A DNA stretch of 64,000 nt from the sequence record HE978309; one strand, given 5' to 3'. A program made the translations under genes and the position numbers. Under the pieces are notes generated by a model. It made no database searches. It worked only from the letters and a program-made list of their open reading frames with translations, and was not told the origin of the DNA. Positions 805 through 62,673 of this stretch are shown here, in pieces (position 1 is the first letter of the stretch; each line of letters begins with the position of its first letter). Source of the DNA: Enterobacteria phage GEC-3S.

Positions 805-2046
805 ATGACTCATATTTTTACTGAACTGTTGCGGGAATCTACTTCCTCAGTAGCTAACCAGACAGCGCGACCGCAACTATTATCATTAACTCGCGCGGTA
901 AACAACCTGATTTTCTCTGATCTGGTAGCAATCCAGCCAACGGATCAACCAGTATCTGCATTGTACGGCCTACGTTATCTTAATCATGATGGTCAGATGA
1001 CTTTCCGAACTGCTGCAACCTACGGTGGCGCGGTTGGTGATCGCACAGAGATTGAAGAGTTTTCAAAAGAAAAATCTTATGACGAAGGCGCACTATTCAA
1101 ATCAGGCGATGTTGTATACGAAGTTGTGACCGCTGGTACAGTCGGTGAAGATGCCGCAACTCCAGAAGCTGCGATCTTTAAAGGCGTAATGACAAACAAA
1201 ATTCGTTTCTATAGCGATTGTGCATCGGTAGAATACTTTGAAGATAAAAACACCGAAATTGCGTCTACCTCTATGCAGTTTGACAAGTGGCAAGTTAATG
1301 TAGGTTCTCGTAAACTGAAAACCTCGTTCACCACTGAATTAATGCAGGATCTTGAGGCAAGCCAAATCAACTCTGAAAACTCTGTAATTGATCTTCTGGC
1401 TACTGTTGCTTCCGAAGAGATCAACAAAGATATTATTCAGAAGTTGATCACTGTATCATCTCGCTATAAAATTAAAGGGATCACCCCTGATGGCGTACTT
1501 TCTCTCGTTAGCGTTCAGGATGCACCAACACAAGCGCGTGAACTTTACCGCTATGCTTGCGAGATGAGCAATCAAATGTTGCGGACTTCCTCCTTTGCTG
1601 GTACATACGTTTTGGCGTCTTCTCGCGTGGTTGGCCTCCTGCAATCTTCCGGTTGGATGGAAGAAACCGACAATGCTCTAAGCGAAGGTCGTCTACGTTG
1701 CGGTCTGGAAGTGTACGCAGACACGACAACACCTTTCGATTATATGCTCGTTGGTTGTAAGCACATGATCGGTGATATGGAGAGTGTAGGTTCTCTGTTC
1801 TACTCCCCATATACAGAAGCCGACGGCGCTGGCGCGTATAAGAGTGTAATTGACCCTAATAGCTTCCAGCATCATGTAGCTATTATGAATCGTTATTCAC
1901 TCTCTGTCAACCCATACACATCAAAAGTTGATCAGGAAGAACACCAGGTCATCAAGGGTGACGATTGGGGTAAAATGGCTGGACGTTCAGAAATGTCCTA
2001 CATTTTAGGAATCGAACTGCCACCGCTTGAGATTGACAACGCTTAA
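805..2046 (+). CDS. 24: Head vertex protein gp24 (gp23 paralog)
   Basis: MTHIFTELLREST... aligns with T4 gp24 (MAKINELLRESTT...; SRKLKT..ELAQDLEA; MAGRS); ORF-track ORF 757 starts at TTG, first ATG with AGGA at 805. Confidence 0.9.
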   Translation: MTHIFTELLRESTSSVANQTARPQLLSLTRAVNNLIFSDLVAIQPTDQPVSALYGLRYLNHDGQMTFRTAATYGGAVGDRTEIEEFSKEKSYDEGALFKSGDVVYEVVTAGTVGEDAATPEAAIFKGVMTNKIRFYSDCASVEYFEDKNTEIASTSMQFDKWQVNVGSRKLKTSFTTELMQDLEASQINSENSVIDLLATVASEEINKDIIQKLITVSSRYKIKGITPDGVLSLVSVQDAPTQARELYRYACEMSNQMLRTSSFAGTYVLASSRVVGLLQSSGWMEETDNALSEGRLRCGLEVYADTTTPFDYMLVGCKHMIGDMESVGSLFYSPYTEADGAGAYKSVIDPNSFQHHVAIMNRYSLSVNPYTSKVDQEEHQVIKGDDWGKMAGRSEMSYILGIELPPLEIDNA

Positions 2047-2634
2047 CTAAATATCTAACCAAGACAAGTCAGATCCGCCCAAGATTTTTTCGACGGCGGA
2101 TCTATTTTCTTGATGATATAAGTTAAAACATGGTATCCCATGTCTACGGGCAACATAAACAGCAATTCGAGTTCCTCCCGAAACGATTCCATTAACTTCT
2201 TTCGCCCAGAATATCACACAATCTACAGGATCATCAAGTGTCTCACCTAAGACTTGAGCAACATTTCTAGAAAACAGATTTTGCATGTATAACGGTATAG
2301 AACGAGGATTATCATAAACGTGTTCTAATTCATCCATCGCCAGATTTTTTTGTTCTAAGGTTTGCCATGCAATCACATCATGACCGTTATGCTTGTGGTC
2401 ATAAAACTTCCAATTTGGAATGAAAATTTTTCTATAATCTGGATCGTAATACTTCATGAAAGCATTGTCCATACCGTAAGCCCCTCCAGAATGCGCTACA
2501 ACGCGATTTTCTGACAATACCCTCCCAATGGTACTAGCCATTATCAAAATGTCGCTAGGCGCTTTTCTAGAGCCGATTAAAGCACATCTACGAAGTGGTT
2601 TTACTCCAAATAGATCTTGTAACTGGTCAAACAT
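2047..2634 (-). CDS. DprA/Smf-like Rossmann-fold protein
   Basis: Motifs IGSRK, SGGAYGMDNA, FSRN, GGTRIAVYVARRHGIPCF resemble DprA Rossmann domain; GGAGG RBS; function inferred. Confidence 0.6.
   Translation of the reverse strand: MFDQLQDLFGVKPLRRCALIGSRKAPSDILIMASTIGRVLSENRVVAHSGGAYGMDNAFMKYYDPDYRKIFIPNWKFYDHKHNGHDVIAWQTLEQKNLAMDELEHVYDNPRSIPLYMQNLFSRNVAQVLGETLDDPVDCVIFWAKEVNGIVSGGTRIAVYVARRHGIPCFNLYHQENRSAVEKILGGSDLSWLDI
2071..2111 (+). terminator. Possible terminator for gene 24 embedded in 3' end of convergent gene
   Basis: 9-bp stem AGATCCGCC/GGCGGATCT with long loop followed by T-rich run; weak. Confidence 0.3.
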
Positions 2635-2786
2635 AATATTTCCTCCATAGAAAGCAATATCATACTACAAGTTAATAACAAATACAAGTATCCGCGTAGC
2701 GGAAGCGAGCACAGCGAGCAATAAAACACTTCCAGTAATTGATTAATAAATGTTCGAAACAAATTTTTATTATTCTATAAGATAAG

Positions 2787-2812
2787 TCTTCGTTTTGATC
2801 ATAATTTAATCA
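2787..2812. repeat. 26-bp direct repeat, copy 1 (TCTTCGTTTTGATCATAATTTAATCA)
   Basis: Perfect 26-bp repeat in AT-rich intergenic region upstream of DprA-like gene. Confidence 0.8.
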
Positions 2813-2935
2813 TACATGTAAAAACTACACAAAAGGATATCGCTTCGCGAACTCCTACGGAGTATAACATTTGTGTTACAATATGTAGTGATTAATAATT
2901 AACCAAAGATACATTTTCTATGTTCTAAAGATCTT

Positions 2936-2961
2936 TCTTCGTTTTGATCATAATTTAATCA
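2936..2961. repeat. 26-bp direct repeat, copy 2
   Basis: Identical to copy at 2787-2812, 149 bp apart; nearby TGATTAATAA also duplicated. Confidence 0.8.
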
Positions 2962-3011
2962 AACAGTATTAATATTGTGCACATGTAAACTAAAATTATG
3001 TTAATAACAGA

Positions 3012-3040
3012 TACAAAAAAGCCGCCCCAAAGGACGGCTA
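3012..3040 (-). terminator. Terminator after minus-strand gene 3048..3485
   Basis: A-run / AGCCGCC..GACGGCT hairpin on plus strand (hairpin plus U-run on minus transcript). Confidence 0.5.
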
Positions 3041-3047
3041 ATGTTAA

Positions 3048-3485
3048 TTATTTGTTGATAACGATCTGATTTCGGCGAATGGTAACATTACTCTTAGAGA
3101 TGATCAGATCATCCGGCACTACGTTAGTTTTGTATGGTTGGAAGCGAACAAGCATCTGATTGCGTTTAGACCCTTCCTTAATCTTGATTTCCATCTGGAT
3201 ATTGTTGCCTACGTGAGCAACCGCAATTTCACCTTTATTCTCATAGACCCACTTGCTGGTAACGTCTCCAGCAAAAGCCTTAATAACTTGCAATGCTTCG
3301 TCGTATGCGGTAGAGCTGTGAACTTTCAGAAGGCCAGCCGTAGCAAGACGTGAGCAGGTGATCGCCGGAGATTGCCAAACATCAACATTAATTTGCTCAA
3401 TCAGAGTAACACCGCCCTGATCAACTGCTTTGAATGCTTCGAACATTGCCTTTTTCATTGCTACGTGGTTTTTACGGAATTTCAT
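3048..3485 (-). CDS. Hypothetical protein (145 aa)
   Basis: ORF with GAGGTG RBS; no recognised domain. Confidence 0.6.
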   Translation of the reverse strand: MKFRKNHVAMKKAMFEAFKAVDQGGVTLIEQINVDVWQSPAITCSRLATAGLLKVHSSTAYDEALQVIKAFAGDVTSKWVYENKGEIAVAHVGNNIQMEIKIKEGSKRNQMLVRFQPYKTNVVPDDLIISKSNVTIRRNQIVINK

Positions 3486-3531
3486 AATTAGTCACCTCTA
3501 TTGATTAGTTATTCAGAATATTAATTACAAA

Positions 3532-3807
3532 TCAGGACATTGCCCTTTTGAATGCGTCCATTATAACAGTGTTATTTGGCTTGTCAACACGTTTTTGAAC
3601 TTTATTTTTAAATTTTTTGTTGATGTGGTGTTTACGATAAACAACCTTTTCACGGTTGGCGTAAGCCTCGCGTGCGTCTTTTACCATCAACCATGCCTTA
3701 GCCGCATCTTGTCCGCTGATCCCGCCAATCTTCTTAGCAATATCAACAAAATTAAGACCGTGGTCTTCGCGTAGCATGTAAACCATTAACGCTGTTTTCT
3801 TGTCCAT
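3532..3807 (-). CDS. Hypothetical protein (91 aa), translationally coupled
   Basis: Internal ATG at 3807 overlaps stop of upstream gene (TGATG); ORF-track ORF extends to 3915. Confidence 0.45.
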   Translation of the reverse strand: MDKKTALMVYMLREDHGLNFVDIAKKIGGISGQDAAKAWLMVKDAREAYANREKVVYRKHHINKKFKNKVQKRVDKPNNTVIMDAFKRAMS

Positions 3808-53230: not shown

Positions 53231-53241
53231 CATTTTTAACA

Positions 53242-53270
53242 AGCCGATCCATGTGGTCGGCTTTATTTTT
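53242..53270 (+). terminator. Rho-independent terminator after gene 35
   Basis: AAGCCGATCCA-TG-TGGTCGGCTT followed by TTATTTTT. Confidence 0.65.
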
Positions 53271-53392
53271 ATACAGTTGGTTAAAATGTAACCAAAACGA
53301 AGAAAGATCTTTAGAATAATAGAAAATTTGTTTCGGTTAAAAATTAGTCAGTGCCTCCGGCACGTCGCGAAGCGATATTTTTGTTAACATTC

Positions 53393-53400
53393 TATAAATA
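53393..53400 (+). promoter_or_regulatory. T4-type late promoter (TATAAATA) for gene 36
   Basis: Exact TATAAATA about 34 nt upstream of gene 36 ATG. Confidence 0.6.
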
Positions 53401-53433: not shown

Positions 53434-54924
53434 ATGGCAGATTTGAAATATGGATCTACTGTAGGTGGATCTCCCATTTGGACGCAAGGAAACTTGACGA
53501 TCCAGCCAGCGGGGGATCAGCTTTTCTACAAAGGTCATAAAATCTATACCGCTTTTGATAGACCTTCGGCTACCGATTTTGATGCTGTTAGTGCATCCGA
53601 AGGTGGCACATTTCAAAAGCAAGTTCATTTCGAGGAAGGTTTAAGCGTAGGTAGCGCATCGGCTGGAGAAACTAAAAAGAATGGTATCTTTAAAGGTCAG
53701 AGTGACGCTGCTAATTTTGACGGTGTAAGCTGGGGTTTGCATTCATGGAAGTCAATCGGCTTTGTTAATGCCCGTGATGGCGTTATTATGGCGTATATTG
53801 ACACCACAACTGGCGAATTTAAGTCTAAAGGGACTATCGAAGGGACAACCATTAAAGACACAGGTCAACGCGTCTATAGCCCTGTTAATAAACCAACGAA
53901 TAATGATTTAGATTTGGTGTCTCGTCGCGGTGATACTCTCACAGGAACATATAATTTAAACACCGTCACTGTTAAACTATCGGTTGATTCGAAATTAATT
54001 GCAAGGGAACGTGATTTAATTAATTTTGATGCGACTAAGATCTATTATGGTAACGTTCTTGATACGTTGGTCTTCCGAAGTAAAGATGAGCCTACCATTT
54101 TTGTTAATGGCAAAGAAGGTCGTTTTTATCACACCAACAATAAACCAACTAAAGCCGATGTTGGACTAGGCAATGTCACCAATGATGCACAGGTTAAACG
54201 TGCTGGTGATATTATGGAAGGTAACTTGCAAGCGCCTAGAATGTTGGCGACAAACGATCCTGCTGGTCCTAATGAATTGGTTCGTTTGAGCTACTTTGAG
54301 AGAAAATCAATGGTAGCAAATCCAACCATCATTGGAAACGTTGATTGGAACACTCTTATTAATCGCGGTATCTATCGTGTGGAAAATGCTGGATCAGGTA
54401 CTAATAAACCGTCTGATAGCTATTATAACGGCGTTTTGATGGTATATCGCCCAGAAGATGCGGTCGGTACTCGTCGAATTGTTCAGGTGTATTATCCTGA
54501 ATCTATTGACCATCCGATGTGCTGGCGTTCTTGTTCTAATGAATCATGGACTGCATGGAACTATGTAGATCACCGTAAATTAGCCGATATTCGCTATGTT
54601 AACGTAACTGGCGATACCATGACAGGACCGTTAACTGTTCCGGCTGCAAACGGTGTTAGAACAGCTAAAACTAACTATAACGGGGATAACTGTTATGCGG
54701 CGTTAAGCGGTGCTGATGGTACTGCTATGATTCACCGCATTAGTGATATTAAAGGGACCGAAAAGCTGGGGATCACCCACGACTCAAAGGTCGTGTTTTT
54801 CCGTTCTAGAAACAATACTCAAACCGTGGATCGCTATCAGCTTTATCATGAAGGTAATAAACCTACTCCGGCTGATGTTGGAGCGGTTCCACTTAATGCG
54901 GTGATTGATTTTGGTACTTTCTAA
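53434..54924 (+). CDS. 36: Long tail fibre distal connector gp36-like (enlarged)
   Basis: Position between 35 and 37; 496 aa vs 221 aa in T4; N-terminus (MADLKYG...) related to gp34/gp37 N-termini. Confidence 0.65.
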   Translation: MADLKYGSTVGGSPIWTQGNLTIQPAGDQLFYKGHKIYTAFDRPSATDFDAVSASEGGTFQKQVHFEEGLSVGSASAGETKKNGIFKGQSDAANFDGVSWGLHSWKSIGFVNARDGVIMAYIDTTTGEFKSKGTIEGTTIKDTGQRVYSPVNKPTNNDLDLVSRRGDTLTGTYNLNTVTVKLSVDSKLIARERDLINFDATKIYYGNVLDTLVFRSKDEPTIFVNGKEGRFYHTNNKPTKADVGLGNVTNDAQVKRAGDIMEGNLQAPRMLATNDPAGPNELVRLSYFERKSMVANPTIIGNVDWNTLINRGIYRVENAGSGTNKPSDSYYNGVLMVYRPEDAVGTRRIVQVYYPESIDHPMCWRSCSNESWTAWNYVDHRKLADIRYVNVTGDTMTGPLTVPAANGVRTAKTNYNGDNCYAALSGADGTAMIHRISDIKGTEKLGITHDSKVVFFRSRNNTQTVDRYQLYHEGNKPTPADVGAVPLNAVIDFGTF

Positions 54925-54994: not shown

Positions 54995-57763
54995 ATGGCA
55001 GATTTAAGCAGAATCCAATTTAAACGCACTAGCACTAAAGGTCGTAAACCTGATGCTAGTACGATGAATCCGGGGGAATTGGCAATCAACCTTGCGGATC
55101 AATATCTTCTTACTAAAAATGATTCCGGTGCTATTATCAATTTAAGTTGCCCTCCGGTGTATGACCGTGATGTTACAATGGCGGGTAAGGTTAAAGGTAA
55201 TAATTATATCTTAGGTAAAACCGCCAACTATCTGGAAGATCAGACAGCGCGAGATCTTAACTACTTTGGTGCTTTCCGTACCAATGGTCTTGATGGTTTT
55301 CTCGAACTCACGCTAAACGTTCCTCATTCTTCTGGTGTTCAGCATGGTCGAGGATTTACTTTCCAGTATGGACACACAGGAAACCGTGTAGAAACTTATG
55401 GTTATAATAAAGAAGGACAAAAAGCATTTAGCTATAAAATGTATCACGAAGGTGATAAACCAACACCCTCAGAATTGAACGTTTACAGCAAACAAGAAGT
55501 TGACCGTATGTTTGTTAAAAACGTTAAACTTGCTACAGTTCCTGGTGATATAGTTGACGGTTATTTTAAATTAGCAACTGCAATGATTCCGCAAAGCGGT
55601 CGTAGTGTATTTTTCCGTATTCATGGTGGTAACGGATATAACGTTACTGCATACGATCAAGTTGATATTGTAGAAATTGTTATTCGCAGTGGAAATAATC
55701 GTCCTAAAGGTGTTAACGTTATTGCATATCGCCGAAATACAAACAAAGCATTTGATGTTTTGGCTGTTAATACTTCTGGTGATAACTATGATATCTACGT
55801 GAAATATCAGCGTTATACTGATAACGTTATTGTTGAATTTGGTAAAAGTGTTGATGTTAATCTGGTAGTCCATGACGTTCCAGACTTTGTTGTTGATCGT
55901 CCTGCTGGCGATAATGTTATTGGCGGTCGCGCGGTAACTCTTTTTAACACCGAAAACAAACGAGGTGTGTTGAGTTTTGACGATAACACACAAAATAGTT
56001 ATGATATTGTTCACTTGAGTAATGATAGGGGTACTGGACGAAAATATATTCGTAAATTCCGTAGTAACTATAATGAAATGATCTGGCACGAGACGGTTCA
56101 AGGCGCCAGCTATCGTCTGGCTACTGGTGCAACTGATGTTCAGGAGATTCTAACCGTTGAATCTGTTAGCTCAATTGCTGGAACTCATAAAGGTAATATT
56201 ACTTCTGGCCGTATGCTGTTAAATGGTGGTAGTAATGTTATTACCTTGCGGCGTCCTGCTGGTCAATCCAACCATATTGCGTTTCAAGATAATCGTACTG
56301 GAGATATTACCCGTCAAGGATGGATCGGTTATGCCAATGCTGATACTAACGTTTTTGAATGGTATAGTGATGTAGGTGGCAGTTCTATTCGTCAACATAT
56401 CGACGGACAGATCGAATTTCAGACAGGTAGCATGAAGCGAGTTTATACTAACGGACAATTCATTTCATTATATGCCGATGGCTTCCGTACAGTATATGGA
56501 AACTATGGTTCATGGTGGCGAAATGACGGTAGTAACGTTTATCTGATGAGCACAAAATCAGGCGACACTATGGGTCCGTGGAATACCTTTAGGCCGTTCA
56601 TATACAGTCTCGCCAATGGAAACGTTACTCTAGGTGGTAGCGATGCTGGCAACCATTTAATGCGTCTCAATAATGAAAATCGTCAAGTAGAAATAAATGC
56701 AACAACACATTTAGGGTCTCGATTATATTGGGAACGTAGCGAAGGATCGGCATCTAGATTTTTTATTAAGAATTGGGGTAATGGATCTTCTCGCGCTCAA
56801 GTGTGGGAACTTGCTGACGAGACAGGTTATCATGTATATTCTCAGCGAAACGACGCGGGTGTTCTTCAATTCCGTACTGCTGGTAATTTTGAGACTGGTG
56901 GTGATGCTCAAGTAAACGGGACTTTACGTGTCACCAATGTTCTTCGAACAGATAACCAAATTCAGATTTATCGCGATAACAACAAAGAACTCTGGTTTAA
57001 GGATGCTAATGGTACTAACCGTGGTGTTATCTGGGGTGATAGCACAGGTCAAATGCGCATTCGAAACTATAACAGCGGAGAATTTGACCATGTTTTCCAG
57101 ACTGGTATGATTCGCTTAGAACGTGGGTATGCAAACGGTAGCGACCGTGGTTTGATTCGCGGAGAAGTACAAGGTGGTGCTTGGTCAGAATGGAAAACTC
57201 GCGCTGCTGGCTTATTGGTTGACTGTCCAGCTGCTCAAACTTCCGCATATAACGTATGGAAAGCGACCAAATGGGGTTTAGACCACATCGCGGCAATGGG
57301 CGTTCATGTTCCTAGTGGCGTTATTACTAATGCTATGGCACGTCTTCATATTCATACCACAAACTTTGACTTTAACGCCTCCGGTGATTTCCAAGCAGGT
57401 CGTAACGGTAATTTTAACGATGTGTATATTCGTTCTGATGCTCGCCTTAAAATCAATAAGGAAGAGTATAAGGAGAATGCCACCGATAAAGTTAATCGCT
57501 TGACGGTATACACCTATGACAAGGTTAAATCTTTAACCGACCGTACTGTCATTGCTCATGAAGTTGGTATTATTGCTCAGGATCTTGAGAAAGAATTGCC
57601 GGAAGCCGTAACAACTTCTAAGGTCGGCGATCCTGATAAGCCAGAAGAGATCTTAACAATTTCTAACTCTGCTGTCAACGCTCTTTTAATTAAGGCGTTT
57701 CAGGAAATGAGCGAAGAACTTAAAGCCGTTAAAGCTGAACTAGCGGAACTTAAAAAGAATTAA
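54995..57763 (+). CDS. 37: Long tail fibre distal subunit gp37-like with C-terminal intramolecular chaperone (S74-like) domain
   Basis: 922 aa; C-terminal YIRSDARLKINK ... resembles auto-cleaving IMC domains of phage fibres; position upstream of holin t. Confidence 0.8.
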   Translation: MADLSRIQFKRTSTKGRKPDASTMNPGELAINLADQYLLTKNDSGAIINLSCPPVYDRDVTMAGKVKGNNYILGKTANYLEDQTARDLNYFGAFRTNGLDGFLELTLNVPHSSGVQHGRGFTFQYGHTGNRVETYGYNKEGQKAFSYKMYHEGDKPTPSELNVYSKQEVDRMFVKNVKLATVPGDIVDGYFKLATAMIPQSGRSVFFRIHGGNGYNVTAYDQVDIVEIVIRSGNNRPKGVNVIAYRRNTNKAFDVLAVNTSGDNYDIYVKYQRYTDNVIVEFGKSVDVNLVVHDVPDFVVDRPAGDNVIGGRAVTLFNTENKRGVLSFDDNTQNSYDIVHLSNDRGTGRKYIRKFRSNYNEMIWHETVQGASYRLATGATDVQEILTVESVSSIAGTHKGNITSGRMLLNGGSNVITLRRPAGQSNHIAFQDNRTGDITRQGWIGYANADTNVFEWYSDVGGSSIRQHIDGQIEFQTGSMKRVYTNGQFISLYADGFRTVYGNYGSWWRNDGSNVYLMSTKSGDTMGPWNTFRPFIYSLANGNVTLGGSDAGNHLMRLNNENRQVEINATTHLGSRLYWERSEGSASRFFIKNWGNGSSRAQVWELADETGYHVYSQRNDAGVLQFRTAGNFETGGDAQVNGTLRVTNVLRTDNQIQIYRDNNKELWFKDANGTNRGVIWGDSTGQMRIRNYNSGEFDHVFQTGMIRLERGYANGSDRGLIRGEVQGGAWSEWKTRAAGLLVDCPAAQTSAYNVWKATKWGLDHIAAMGVHVPSGVITNAMARLHIHTTNFDFNASGDFQAGRNGNFNDVYIRSDARLKINKEEYKENATDKVNRLTVYTYDKVKSLTDRTVIAHEVGIIAQDLEKELPEAVTTSKVGDPDKPEEILTISNSAVNALLIKAFQEMSEELKAVKAELAELKKN

Positions 57764-62473: not shown

Positions 62474-62673
62474 TAGTTTTTGTTATTTTCGTGAAAATTT
62501 TTCGTCGCCTCATGTGCTTTTCTCTGGGCTTCTTGTTGTGCTTGCTGGCGTGCTGCCTCTTGCGATGTCATAACGGAAGCATTTGCAGCAGTTACAGCCG
62601 CGACCATCGCTGCGGTATTAGCATTTACAGTACATGCACTAGCCAGCAAAGCAATTGCAATCATTTTCTTCAT
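62473..62673 (-). CDS. Small secreted protein (66 aa, signal peptide)
   Basis: MKKMIAIALLASACTVNA signal-peptide-like N-terminus; ATGA coupling. Confidence 0.45.
   Translation of the reverse strand: MKKMIAIALLASACTVNANTAAMVAAVTAANASVMTSQEAARQQAQQEAQRKAHEATKNFHENNKN

Follow-up and report, generated by a model that had tools for sequence, protein, structure and literature searches.

Two 26-bp repeats upstream of ORF164 in a Krischvirus phage belong to a four-copy non-coding cassette at transcription-unit boundaries

Why should one short spacer of a phage genome contain the same 26-bp sequence twice? The question is raised by a 64,000-nt stretch of Enterobacteria phage GEC-3S (sequence record HE978309; the whole stretch is called the window below), which Megablast assigns to Krischvirus, i.e., the RB49/Phi1/JSE group of T4-like coliphages. 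Positions 2635–3047 of the window are an AT-rich spacer without open reading frames (ORFs), which extends on the minus strand from the stop codon of ORF165 (3048) to the ATG of ORF164 (2634–2632) and holds the two repeats. We find that the repeats are the best-conserved segment of two tandem copies of a portable, four-copy non-coding cassette (referred to as the unit; its copies are named B, A, C and D), and that this cassette is placed at transcription-unit boundaries. Across positions 2000–3600 the window is 99.9% identical to phage Phi1 (window position 2000 is Phi1 98130).

The initial annotation had described two perfect 26-mers 149 bp apart with a duplicated motif nearby, in an AT-rich region before a DprA-like gene, and had proposed a tandem duplication of a regulatory unit or paired binding sites. 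The repeats themselves are as described: TCTTCGTTTTGATCATAATTTAATCA is found exactly at 2787–2812 and 2936–2961 (plus strand), TGATTAATAA is found at 2740 and 2889 in the same 149-bp register, and the region (30% G+C, vs 40% for the window) is exactly the ORF165/ORF164 spacer, although the gene name is itself weakly supported. Similarity around the 26-mers reaches 38 nt (2779–2816 vs 2928–2965, 89% identity), and beyond the repeated blocks the two 149-bp segments align poorly. Tandem Repeats Finder does not report the 149-bp array, and what is present are two copies only, about 80% alike and 149 bp apart, rather than an iteron-type array of at least three short head-to-tail units. No third match to the 26-mer with up to three mismatches was found in the 64-kb window (0.00 expected from 100 dinucleotide shuffles). 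The exact 26-mer likewise occurs nowhere else in the genome, but a search for the motif elsewhere did turn up diverged copies of the unit to which it belongs.

These copies came to light when the spacer was compared with the complete Phi1 genome in a sensitive self-BLAST, which revealed two further diverged copies of the spacer unit; a profile built from the four copies retrieves exactly four in the Phi1 genome and nothing more. Unit B (2836–2964, nhmmer E 9e-27) and unit A (2688–2815, E 5e-32) lie in tandem on the minus strand of the spacer, unit D (53277–53376 on the plus strand, i.e., Phi1 ~149926–150035; E 4e-36) lies between genes 35 and 36, and unit C (Phi1 ~62480–62584, outside the window) lies between late gene 3 and ORF130, upstream of gene 3. 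All four units read the same way as the downstream gene. The three unit loci, with their four copies, are present in all 57 Krischvirus records of the phage collection, and in 57 of 57 the spacer 2635–3047 is retained at full length and in one piece with 95–100% identity. Matches beyond Krischvirus to a degenerate pattern of the first palindrome plus core share the pattern alone, and plasmids gave no match to the unit. No sister genus with a diverged unit before gene 36 was available; gp36 identity drops from at least 80% to below 45%.

Each unit is a hairpin-rich, non-coding segment of roughly 130 nt (110–150 nt) with the following anatomy. It starts with a palindrome, H1, which has the form TTGGTTA-N5-TAACCAA in units C and D and TTGATTA-N5-TGATCAA in units A and B. 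H1 is directly followed by CAAAACGAAGA, which is invariant among the units; the 26-mer is H1 plus this conserved CAAAACGAAGA, read on the gene strand as the reverse complement. Then come a small palindrome, H2 (AAGA-N4-TCTT, with a variable centre), the AT-rich stretch TAGAATAATAAAAATTTGTTTCG, and a further palindrome, called site 2, at a distance of exactly 56 bp from H1. In copies A and B, site 2 contains the TGATTAATAA motif. The 3' part is made up of a pair of adjoining GC mini-hairpins, each with a stem of 5 bp and a loop of 3 nt, and of a T-rich tail that closes the unit. In unit B, H1 (2944–2962) holds the second 26-mer, the site 2 palindrome (2889–2905) holds TGATTAATAA and is followed by an insertion of about 25 nt, and the mini-hairpins are ACTCC-GTA-GGAGT (2851–2863) and TCGC-GAA-GCGA (2840–2850). 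In unit A, H1 (2796–2812) holds the first 26-mer, site 2 is degenerate (2741–2755, with TGATTAATAA at 2740–2749), and there is a single mini-hairpin, TCCGC-TAC-GCGGA (2691–2703), before the T-rich tail. The mini-hairpins of C and D are GTGCC-TAC/TCC-GGCAC and then GTCGC-GAA/AAA-GCGAY; in D, where H1 is at 53277–53295 and site 2 at 53335–53349, they are GTGCC-TCC-GGCAC (53351–53363) and GTCGC-GAA-GCGAT (53364–53376), ending in a T run.

Both motifs of the spacer are thus homologous parts of one unit present in two head-to-tail copies, and in this respect the proposed tandem duplication stands; a simple, recent local event it is not, as the unit is a member of a dispersed four-copy family. A and B share 80% identity over the shared module, which is no closer than either is to C, D or a prophage homologue described below (75–81%). 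Among the phage copies, A/B vs C/D pairs have 76–81% identity over this module, and only C and D are close (94%). The proposed regulatory or binding-site role is an inference: neither a strong sigma-70 promoter nor a late one lies within the spacer, and no protein that binds it was identified.

Three lines of evidence suggest constraint on the unit, two of them from within the genus. Out of 40 perfect hairpins in the Phi1 genome with a 5-bp stem, at least three GC pairs and a 3-nt loop, five fall within the 643 nt of the unit-bearing spacers (0.16 expected, P ~7e-7), and the sole adjacent pair of mini-hairpins in the genome is that of copy C. The stems of the mini-hairpins are wholly different between A, B, C/D and the prophage versions while their geometry is the same. 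Natural variation of the units, compared in twelve genomes, spares the H1 arms of C and D, which never vary, but not the 5-nt centre between them; variants of the C and D mini-hairpins alter loops only, not stems, and changes in site 2 preserve pairing (G-U to A-U). Counting of base pairs gives no more than one covarying pair in H1, and an alternative long-range helix has two covarying pairs and a score unmatched by 500 shuffles, these counts resting on about four independent lineages. A consensus fold of the 5' module over both phage families yields two short helices of about -3 kcal/mol with no strand preference. Taken together, it seems to be the sequence that is conserved in the 5' module, and the structure in the 3' hairpins. 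Nothing in Rfam overlaps the units even at E ≤10, and only weak, terminator-driven matches were seen at 3006–3100.

The third line comes from outside the genus. Using BLAST, we found an ~84-nt match to unit D with ~75% identity in 45 of 5,426 complete Escherichia coli genomes, in a prophage family unrelated to Krischvirus (E. coli chromosomes gave no match to the unit outside the prophage), and about 23 additional viral contigs carry the prophage module. The ~85-nt homologue scores E = 8e-16 with nhmmer against the four-copy profile, and in the reciprocal BLAST of the whole prophage region against 50,697 phage records only the Krischvirus units were matched. It retains H1, the CAAAACGAAGA...ATCTTTAGAA block and H2, and shares 75–80% identity with each phage copy over the shared module, the same distance as A from B or A/B from C/D. 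It, too, is followed by two adjoining GC mini-hairpins with loops of 3 nt and unrelated stems (GCAACC-GAA-GGTTGC then ATCCC-GAA-GGGAT; in one contig GACGCTC-CCT-GAGCGTC then TGC-GAA-GCA). The module always lies 110–150 nt upstream of a divergent 154-aa gene, and is almost invariant while the 154-aa protein falls to 56–60% amino-acid identity. No protein is common to the prophage neighbourhood and Krischvirus, so there is no co-travelling partner. The module sits in a 1.4-kb ORF-free divergent region (E. coli ES2, NZ_CM184352.1 ~2896310–2897696) that also contains repeats (AAGTGATT and TCTAGAATCA motifs, and about nine TTCAGGGGCAAAAAT iterons), several mini-hairpins of GCGAAGC/GCGTAGC type and a consensus promoter (TTGACA-17-TATACT). 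Its neighbours are uninformative in Pfam and PHROGs, except for a terminase small subunit gene 3 kb away; the region probably serves for the control of origin, packaging or immunity in a prophage family that is still uncharacterised.

We next consider the transcription signals around the units. The intrinsic terminator of ORF165 (AGCCGTCCTTTGGGGCGGCT plus a T run, 3020–3039, minus strand), which is annotated as a terminator in G37-3, is immediately upstream of unit B, and the gene 35 terminator (53241–53263, plus strand) precedes unit D. The T4-type late promoter is WATAAATA, found about 20–40 nt before the start codon, and RB49 late promoters tolerate A or T at the first position (PMC1524935). 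A T4-type late promoter of gene 36, TATAAATA (53393–53400, plus strand), begins 16 nt downstream of unit D (ATG of gene 36 at 53434), and unit C lies exactly between two divergent late-promoter matches, AATAAATA, for ORF130 and gene 3. Late promoters are absent from all units and from 2635–3047, and lie just outside units C and D. After unit A there is only a weak sigma-70-like candidate and the Shine-Dalgarno sequence of ORF164 (GGAGG, 2646–2642, minus strand); the doubled cassette of this spacer has no late promoter following it. This candidate promoter (2659–2687, minus strand; TTGTAT at 2687–2682, 17 nt, TATGAT at 2664–2659) was read from the sequence, matches 8/12 of the consensus and is below the threshold of our scanner. 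None of the three unit-bearing spacers has a sigma-70 site of at least 10/12 on either strand (best 8/12), as compared to 206 such sites in Phi1; simple promoter scans of the gene strand likewise gave nothing, and DnaA, IHF, FNR, CRP and MotA-box motifs were not found in the phage spacers. In a simple scan of the sense strand, the last mini-hairpin plus T tail is flagged as resembling a terminator in three units (A, C and D), with stems of 5 bp; B fails the scan.

Several candidate features of the spacers were set aside. A sense promoter inside the unit (TNAYCA-17/18-TAGAAT) reaches 8/12 at best and reads TAGAAC in B, nothing is conserved upstream of H1 that could serve as a sense promoter, and an antisense promoter through H1 also scores 8/12, with a -10-like hexamer that is not conserved in the prophage family. 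The mini-ORFs that start from an ATG within the 26-mer (MIKTKKDL* and MIKTKTYLIE*) are absent from copies C and D and were rejected; some annotators have annotated small coding sequences in the unit-bearing spacers, with calls that are inconsistent between records.

Recombination among the copies is suggested by a mosaic of patches that are identical between paralogues. The 30 nt around H1 are common to A and B, the 23-nt core of A equals that of C, AAACGAAGAAAGATCTTTAGAA of B is that of C and D, and TCGCGAAGCGATAT of B is that of D. C and D are mutually inverted, 87 kb apart. As compared to Phi1, the record of phage LF73P4 (OZ035795.1) shows reciprocal exchanges at exactly two repeat pairs, the C/D pair and a PeSL pair (PeSL: promoter-early stem-loop, a known cassette of these phages that is taken up below). 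This record contains both reciprocal C/D hybrid junctions (at its positions 56743–56851 and 141390–141499), and its hybrid units share 80 identical nt vs 33 nt in Phi1. The second exchange involves a textbook PeSL pair (TTGACA, GGGGATC...GATCCCC, TATACT), at ~37.6 kb and ~83 kb in LF73P4 and at ~42.6 kb and ~123.67 kb in Phi1. Neither a collapse of A and B to one copy nor a lost copy was seen among the 57 Krischvirus records.

Some further observations were made at these loci. A 13-mer, TATTTTTATACAG, adjoins H1 at both C and D (window 53265–53276; Phi1 62591–62603) and is a direct repeat on the plus strand of the genome although units C and D are inverted; this placement suggests that an exchange or inversion once took place with the H1 palindrome at its centre. 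Three independent GenBank records, kvi (MN850615), pEJ01 (OP114734) and Skers (MW748999), start or end exactly at Phi1 62603/62604, 20 nt from H1 of copy C. For kvi, a de novo assembly of Nextera reads is described without mention of any reorientation, and the authors of pEJ01 ran PhageTerm and gave no result; these record ends could mean that assemblies broke at the repeat, or that the DNA itself has a preferred end or nick here. In AV108 (OR352938), phiS (PP449093) and IMGVR_UViG_3300045988_033703, a homing-endonuclease gene of ~590 bp is inserted between the late-promoter region of copy C and the Shine-Dalgarno sequence of gene 3. Copy D of ECD7 has an H1 loop of A/B type (AATTA), consistent with conversion between loci, and Brandy (MZ504876) has a 7-nt duplication (TGTGTAG) in the junction between units B and A.

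What might the cassette do? Our preferred interpretation, which we hold tentatively and at somewhat less than an even chance, is that it acts as a structured boundary element and as a patch of recombination homology, the functional part of this being suggested by position and anatomy. The cassette would mark boundaries of transcription units, with a terminator or divergent promoter on its upstream side and the next promoter on its downstream side; the mini-hairpins and T tail would damp sense-strand read-through ahead of that promoter; and some host component that the two phage types share may recognise the conserved 5' module. The copies would at the same time offer homology patches of 80–110 nt as substrates for gene conversion and rearrangement, as PeSL cassettes do. 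Several points weigh against this interpretation. The mini-hairpins are short and weak as intrinsic terminators, B and D already follow strong terminators, and termination leaves the sequence conservation of CAAAACGAAGA...ATCTTTAGAA unexplained. Three uncompensated, pair-breaking substitutions are found in H1 of A/B (LF73P4, G2248) and speak against a strict constraint on structure. The distance from unit to promoter is not fixed: counted back from the predicted start, the centre of site 2 is ~55 nt away in C, ~65 nt in D and ~96 nt in A. Conservation in 57 genomes is weak evidence by itself because diversity in the genus is low, and LF73P4 is either a real rearranged isolate or the product of an assembly graph mis-resolved at 80-nt identical repeats.

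Other explanations account for parts of these data. Since the module moves without a partner protein, a host factor is plausible, and H1 and site 2 could be paired predicted sites for a dimeric host DNA-bending protein, with E. coli Fis as the best candidate, that bends or loops the DNA upstream of promoters, which we regard as rather unlikely. The Fis consensus is a 15-bp motif, GNTYAAAWTTTRANC (PMC6907758 Table 2). Four sites in Phi1 reach 12/13 of it, three of which are the H1 palindromes of A, B and D. Of the 24 sites with at least 11/13, six are in units (including H1 of C, and site 2 of B and D, at 11/13); each unit has two candidate sites exactly 56 bp apart. The arms are conserved and the centres variable, two of three H1 substitutions in A/B hit an unspecified (N) position of the motif, and units C, D and B are located where little transcription is predicted, i.e., between divergent promoters or after terminators. 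The genome-wide counts of sites are at chance level, however (4 vs 2.5 ± 1.4 and 24 vs 35 ± 5), and the four paralogues are not independent. H1 and the second site of the prophage match worse (~10/13 and ~9/13), the central AT tract is interrupted by a C in copy C and in many variants of D, the best-conserved block, CAAAACGAAGA...ATCTTTAGAA, is outside the Fis-like sites, the positions of the sites vary relative to the promoters, and the mini-hairpins with their unrelated stems are left unexplained. T4-type late promoters are not known to require an upstream element, which also counts against a Fis platform. An element acting as sense-strand RNA, either a small RNA of ~100–150 nt or a cis-acting segment for processing, stability or attenuation of read-through transcripts, is in our estimate unlikely. 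It would fit the G-U stem positions that favour the sense strand (C-A on the other strand) in H1 of A/B, site 2 of B and D, and H4 of D, the changes from wobble to Watson-Crick pairs in site 2, the long-range helix with two covarying pairs that beats all 500 shuffles, single-sequence folds that exceed shuffles (z -2.2 to -2.9 for B, C and D), the terminator-like 3' end on the sense strand, and GAA loops that are mostly on the sense strand. Set against this, no copy has a conserved promoter upstream of H1, the Rfam search gave no match even at its permissive cutoff, the fold common to both families is limited to the two short helices without strand preference, and antisense strands fold about equally well; a variant seen repeatedly, ATCAA to ACCAA, gives a wobble pair on the antisense strand but breaks the pair on the sense strand, and copy C, between divergent promoters, would be transcribed from neither.

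The hairpin strand and the AT-rich core could also be an origin or priming (ssi-like) signal, serving MotA-independent origins of Krischvirus, a reading that we consider improbable. Arguing for it, the prophage homologue is ~500 bp from the ~9 TTCAGGGGCAAAAAT iterons in the 1.4-kb ORF-free region, mini-hairpins of GCGAAGC type with GAA loops recur on one strand, and the three loci are 1–6 kb from genes 5, uvsY and 34, the T4 sites of oriE, oriF and oriG. The sequence d(GCGAAGC) forms an unusually stable DNA hairpin and occurs at origins of single-stranded DNA phages. T4 origins lie near strand switches and in late-gene regions, and have no common motif (PMC3016281). Against it, iterons, DnaA boxes and IHF sites are absent from the phage spacers, the agreement in position with the T4 origins is loose and may be accidental, and the prophage array could equally be a packaging or operator region, the terminase small subunit gene being 3 kb away. 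Similarly improbable in our view is the related idea that the units are a horizontally shared origin/ssi module, working with host replication proteins and common to the phage and the iteron-bearing prophage region. A decayed early-promoter cassette, i.e., a degenerate PeSL whose antisense AT-rich tract has a -35-like TTGRTN in H1 and TATNNN 16–17 nt further on, is very improbable. The antisense candidates are TTGATC-17-TATTAA (B), TTGGTT-17-TATATT (C, toward ORF130) and TTGGTT-16-TATAAA (D), with TTGATG-16/17-TATGAA in the prophage, toward the 154-aa gene, and in genuine PeSLs the stem-loop can overlie the -35 box or the spacer (PMC2839356). But these candidates are all at 8/12 and none is at the 10/12 reached by the 206 other Phi1 sites; A, B and D have no gene downstream in the antisense direction, and several prophage contigs lose the -10-like hexamer (CATGAA) or have their spacing reduced to 15 nt. 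Finally, the unit could be a neutral repeat, spacer DNA spread between intergenic regions by the very active recombination of the phage and homogenised by gene conversion. The mosaic of identical patches, the uncompensated stem-breaking substitutions in A and B, and the low diversity of the genus, which makes retention in 57 genomes weak evidence of selection, agree with it; we nevertheless give it little probability, as the module is kept at 75–80% identity in unrelated prophages, far better than the neighbouring gene, the hairpin geometry is maintained with unrelated stems and at an enrichment not expected by chance, and no genome has lost a copy or collapsed A and B.

The closest known kind of element is the PeSL cassette of the same phages, described in RB49 and phi1 (Arbiol et al. 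2010, PMC2839356; Comeau et al. 2014, PMC4122927) and defined by a near-perfect TTGACA-N17-TATAAT (PMC4122927). The unit is not a PeSL, because it has no near-consensus sigma-70 promoter; a G(n)/C(n) stem was not seen either. It may nevertheless act in the manner of a PeSL, as a portable cassette for boundaries and recombination. Like the PeSL, it is a short, repeated, intergenic stem-loop cassette that is found at gene boundaries just upstream of genes and would provide a patch of homology. PeSLs mediate recombination between their copies (indels, mini-circles), and the two exchanges in the LF73P4 record, for which mis-assembly is a possible cause, fall at the C/D units and at a classical PeSL pair. 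The differences are these: there are four copies of the unit vs ~50 PeSLs, the sequence families are unrelated, two copies of the unit precede late promoters, and the unit has a homologue outside T4-like phages. While the stable PeSL stem-loop is typically G(n)-loop-C(n), lies in or beside the promoter and acts as a terminator, the units have 5-bp GC mini-hairpins without G or C tracts, and the G-rich terminators before B and D belong to the upstream genes, not to the units. PeSLs lie directly before an ORF with a Shine-Dalgarno sequence and ATG, and favour ORFans in hyperplastic regions; every copy of the unit is intergenic and upstream of a gene, but for C and D this is a conserved late gene (3 or 36), not an ORFan, and what follows B is another unit.

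Other systems share some of these properties. The REP/BIME elements of E. coli are dispersed intergenic mosaics of imperfect palindromes with intervening motifs that can bind nucleoid proteins, are often found at the 3' ends of transcription units, and may be read-through barriers and recombination sites; the unit is likewise a dispersed, intergenic, palindromic mosaic. It differs from them in having no sequence similarity (as judged by the lack of matches in E. coli chromosomes outside the prophage), four copies in a phage, palindromes of other sizes, an AT-rich core and no RAYT-type transposase. The d(GCGAAGC)/ssi signals at origins of single-stranded DNA phages and plasmids may be similar to the unit, in which short GC stems with GAA/GNA loops of 3 nt follow one another on the same strand; in the prophage such mini-hairpins adjoin the iteron array. 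T4-type phages supply their own primase-helicase. As in Fis-bound upstream activating sequences (UAS) and enhancers (rrnB P1, Hin/Gin), the unit has two 15-bp G...C candidate sites with AT-rich centres at a fixed spacing upstream of a promoter. The spacing is 48 bp in the Fis enhancer, the rrnB sites are 31 and 41 bp apart, and the spacing in the unit is 56 bp. Unlike in Fis enhancers, the distance from unit to promoter varies and no invertase is present.

As for the surroundings of the spacer, ORF164 (2047–2634, minus strand), on which gene 24 converges from the left side, carries the RefSeq name 'DprA-like DNA recombination-mediator' and is labelled a putative RNA ligase in one record. Its match to Pfam DNA_processg_A is partial (residues 15–60) and, at 22.3 bits, under the cut-off of 29.6, so that the RefSeq label is backed by a weak match. 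ORF165 (3048–3485, minus strand) has no family match. Its terminator (AAAAAAGCCGCCCCAAAGGACGGCT, window 3015–3043) belongs to a small family of near-identical terminators in the genome, with sites in Phi1 at 76052–76080, 100298–100324, 119548–119575 and 140872–140890. A 17-mer, TTGTATTTGTTATTAAC (2687–2671), recurs after this terminator at 3016–3000, 329 bp apart (GTTAATAACA[G/A]ATACAA); on the gene strand, TTGTATYTGTTATTAAC follows a hairpin both times, namely the ORF165 terminator and the mini-hairpin of unit A, and the -10-like TATGAT follows only the ORF164-proximal copy of this repeat. ARAGORN found no tRNA or tmRNA genes in the window, in agreement with RB49-type phages being reportedly without tRNAs, and no Rfam 15 family reached its gathering score in the window.

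It is accepted that gene shuffling in T4-like phages is driven by PeSLs. The unit would be a second, structurally different class of repeat cassette, built of palindromes and hairpins with 3-nt loops instead of an early promoter, tied to late-gene boundaries, and common to a prophage family that has no gene in common with Krischvirus. With 75–80% identity across two unrelated phage types, exceeding that of the coding neighbours, it should have a host-dependent function. RB49-type phages lack MotA and middle promoters, and Fis binding, termination or priming by the unit, if true, would give a handle on how their transcription units are organised or how their replication starts. C and D also form an inverted repeat spaced by 87 kb that is able to invert more than half of the genome, a potential that matters for the assembly and engineering of therapeutic Krischvirus phages.

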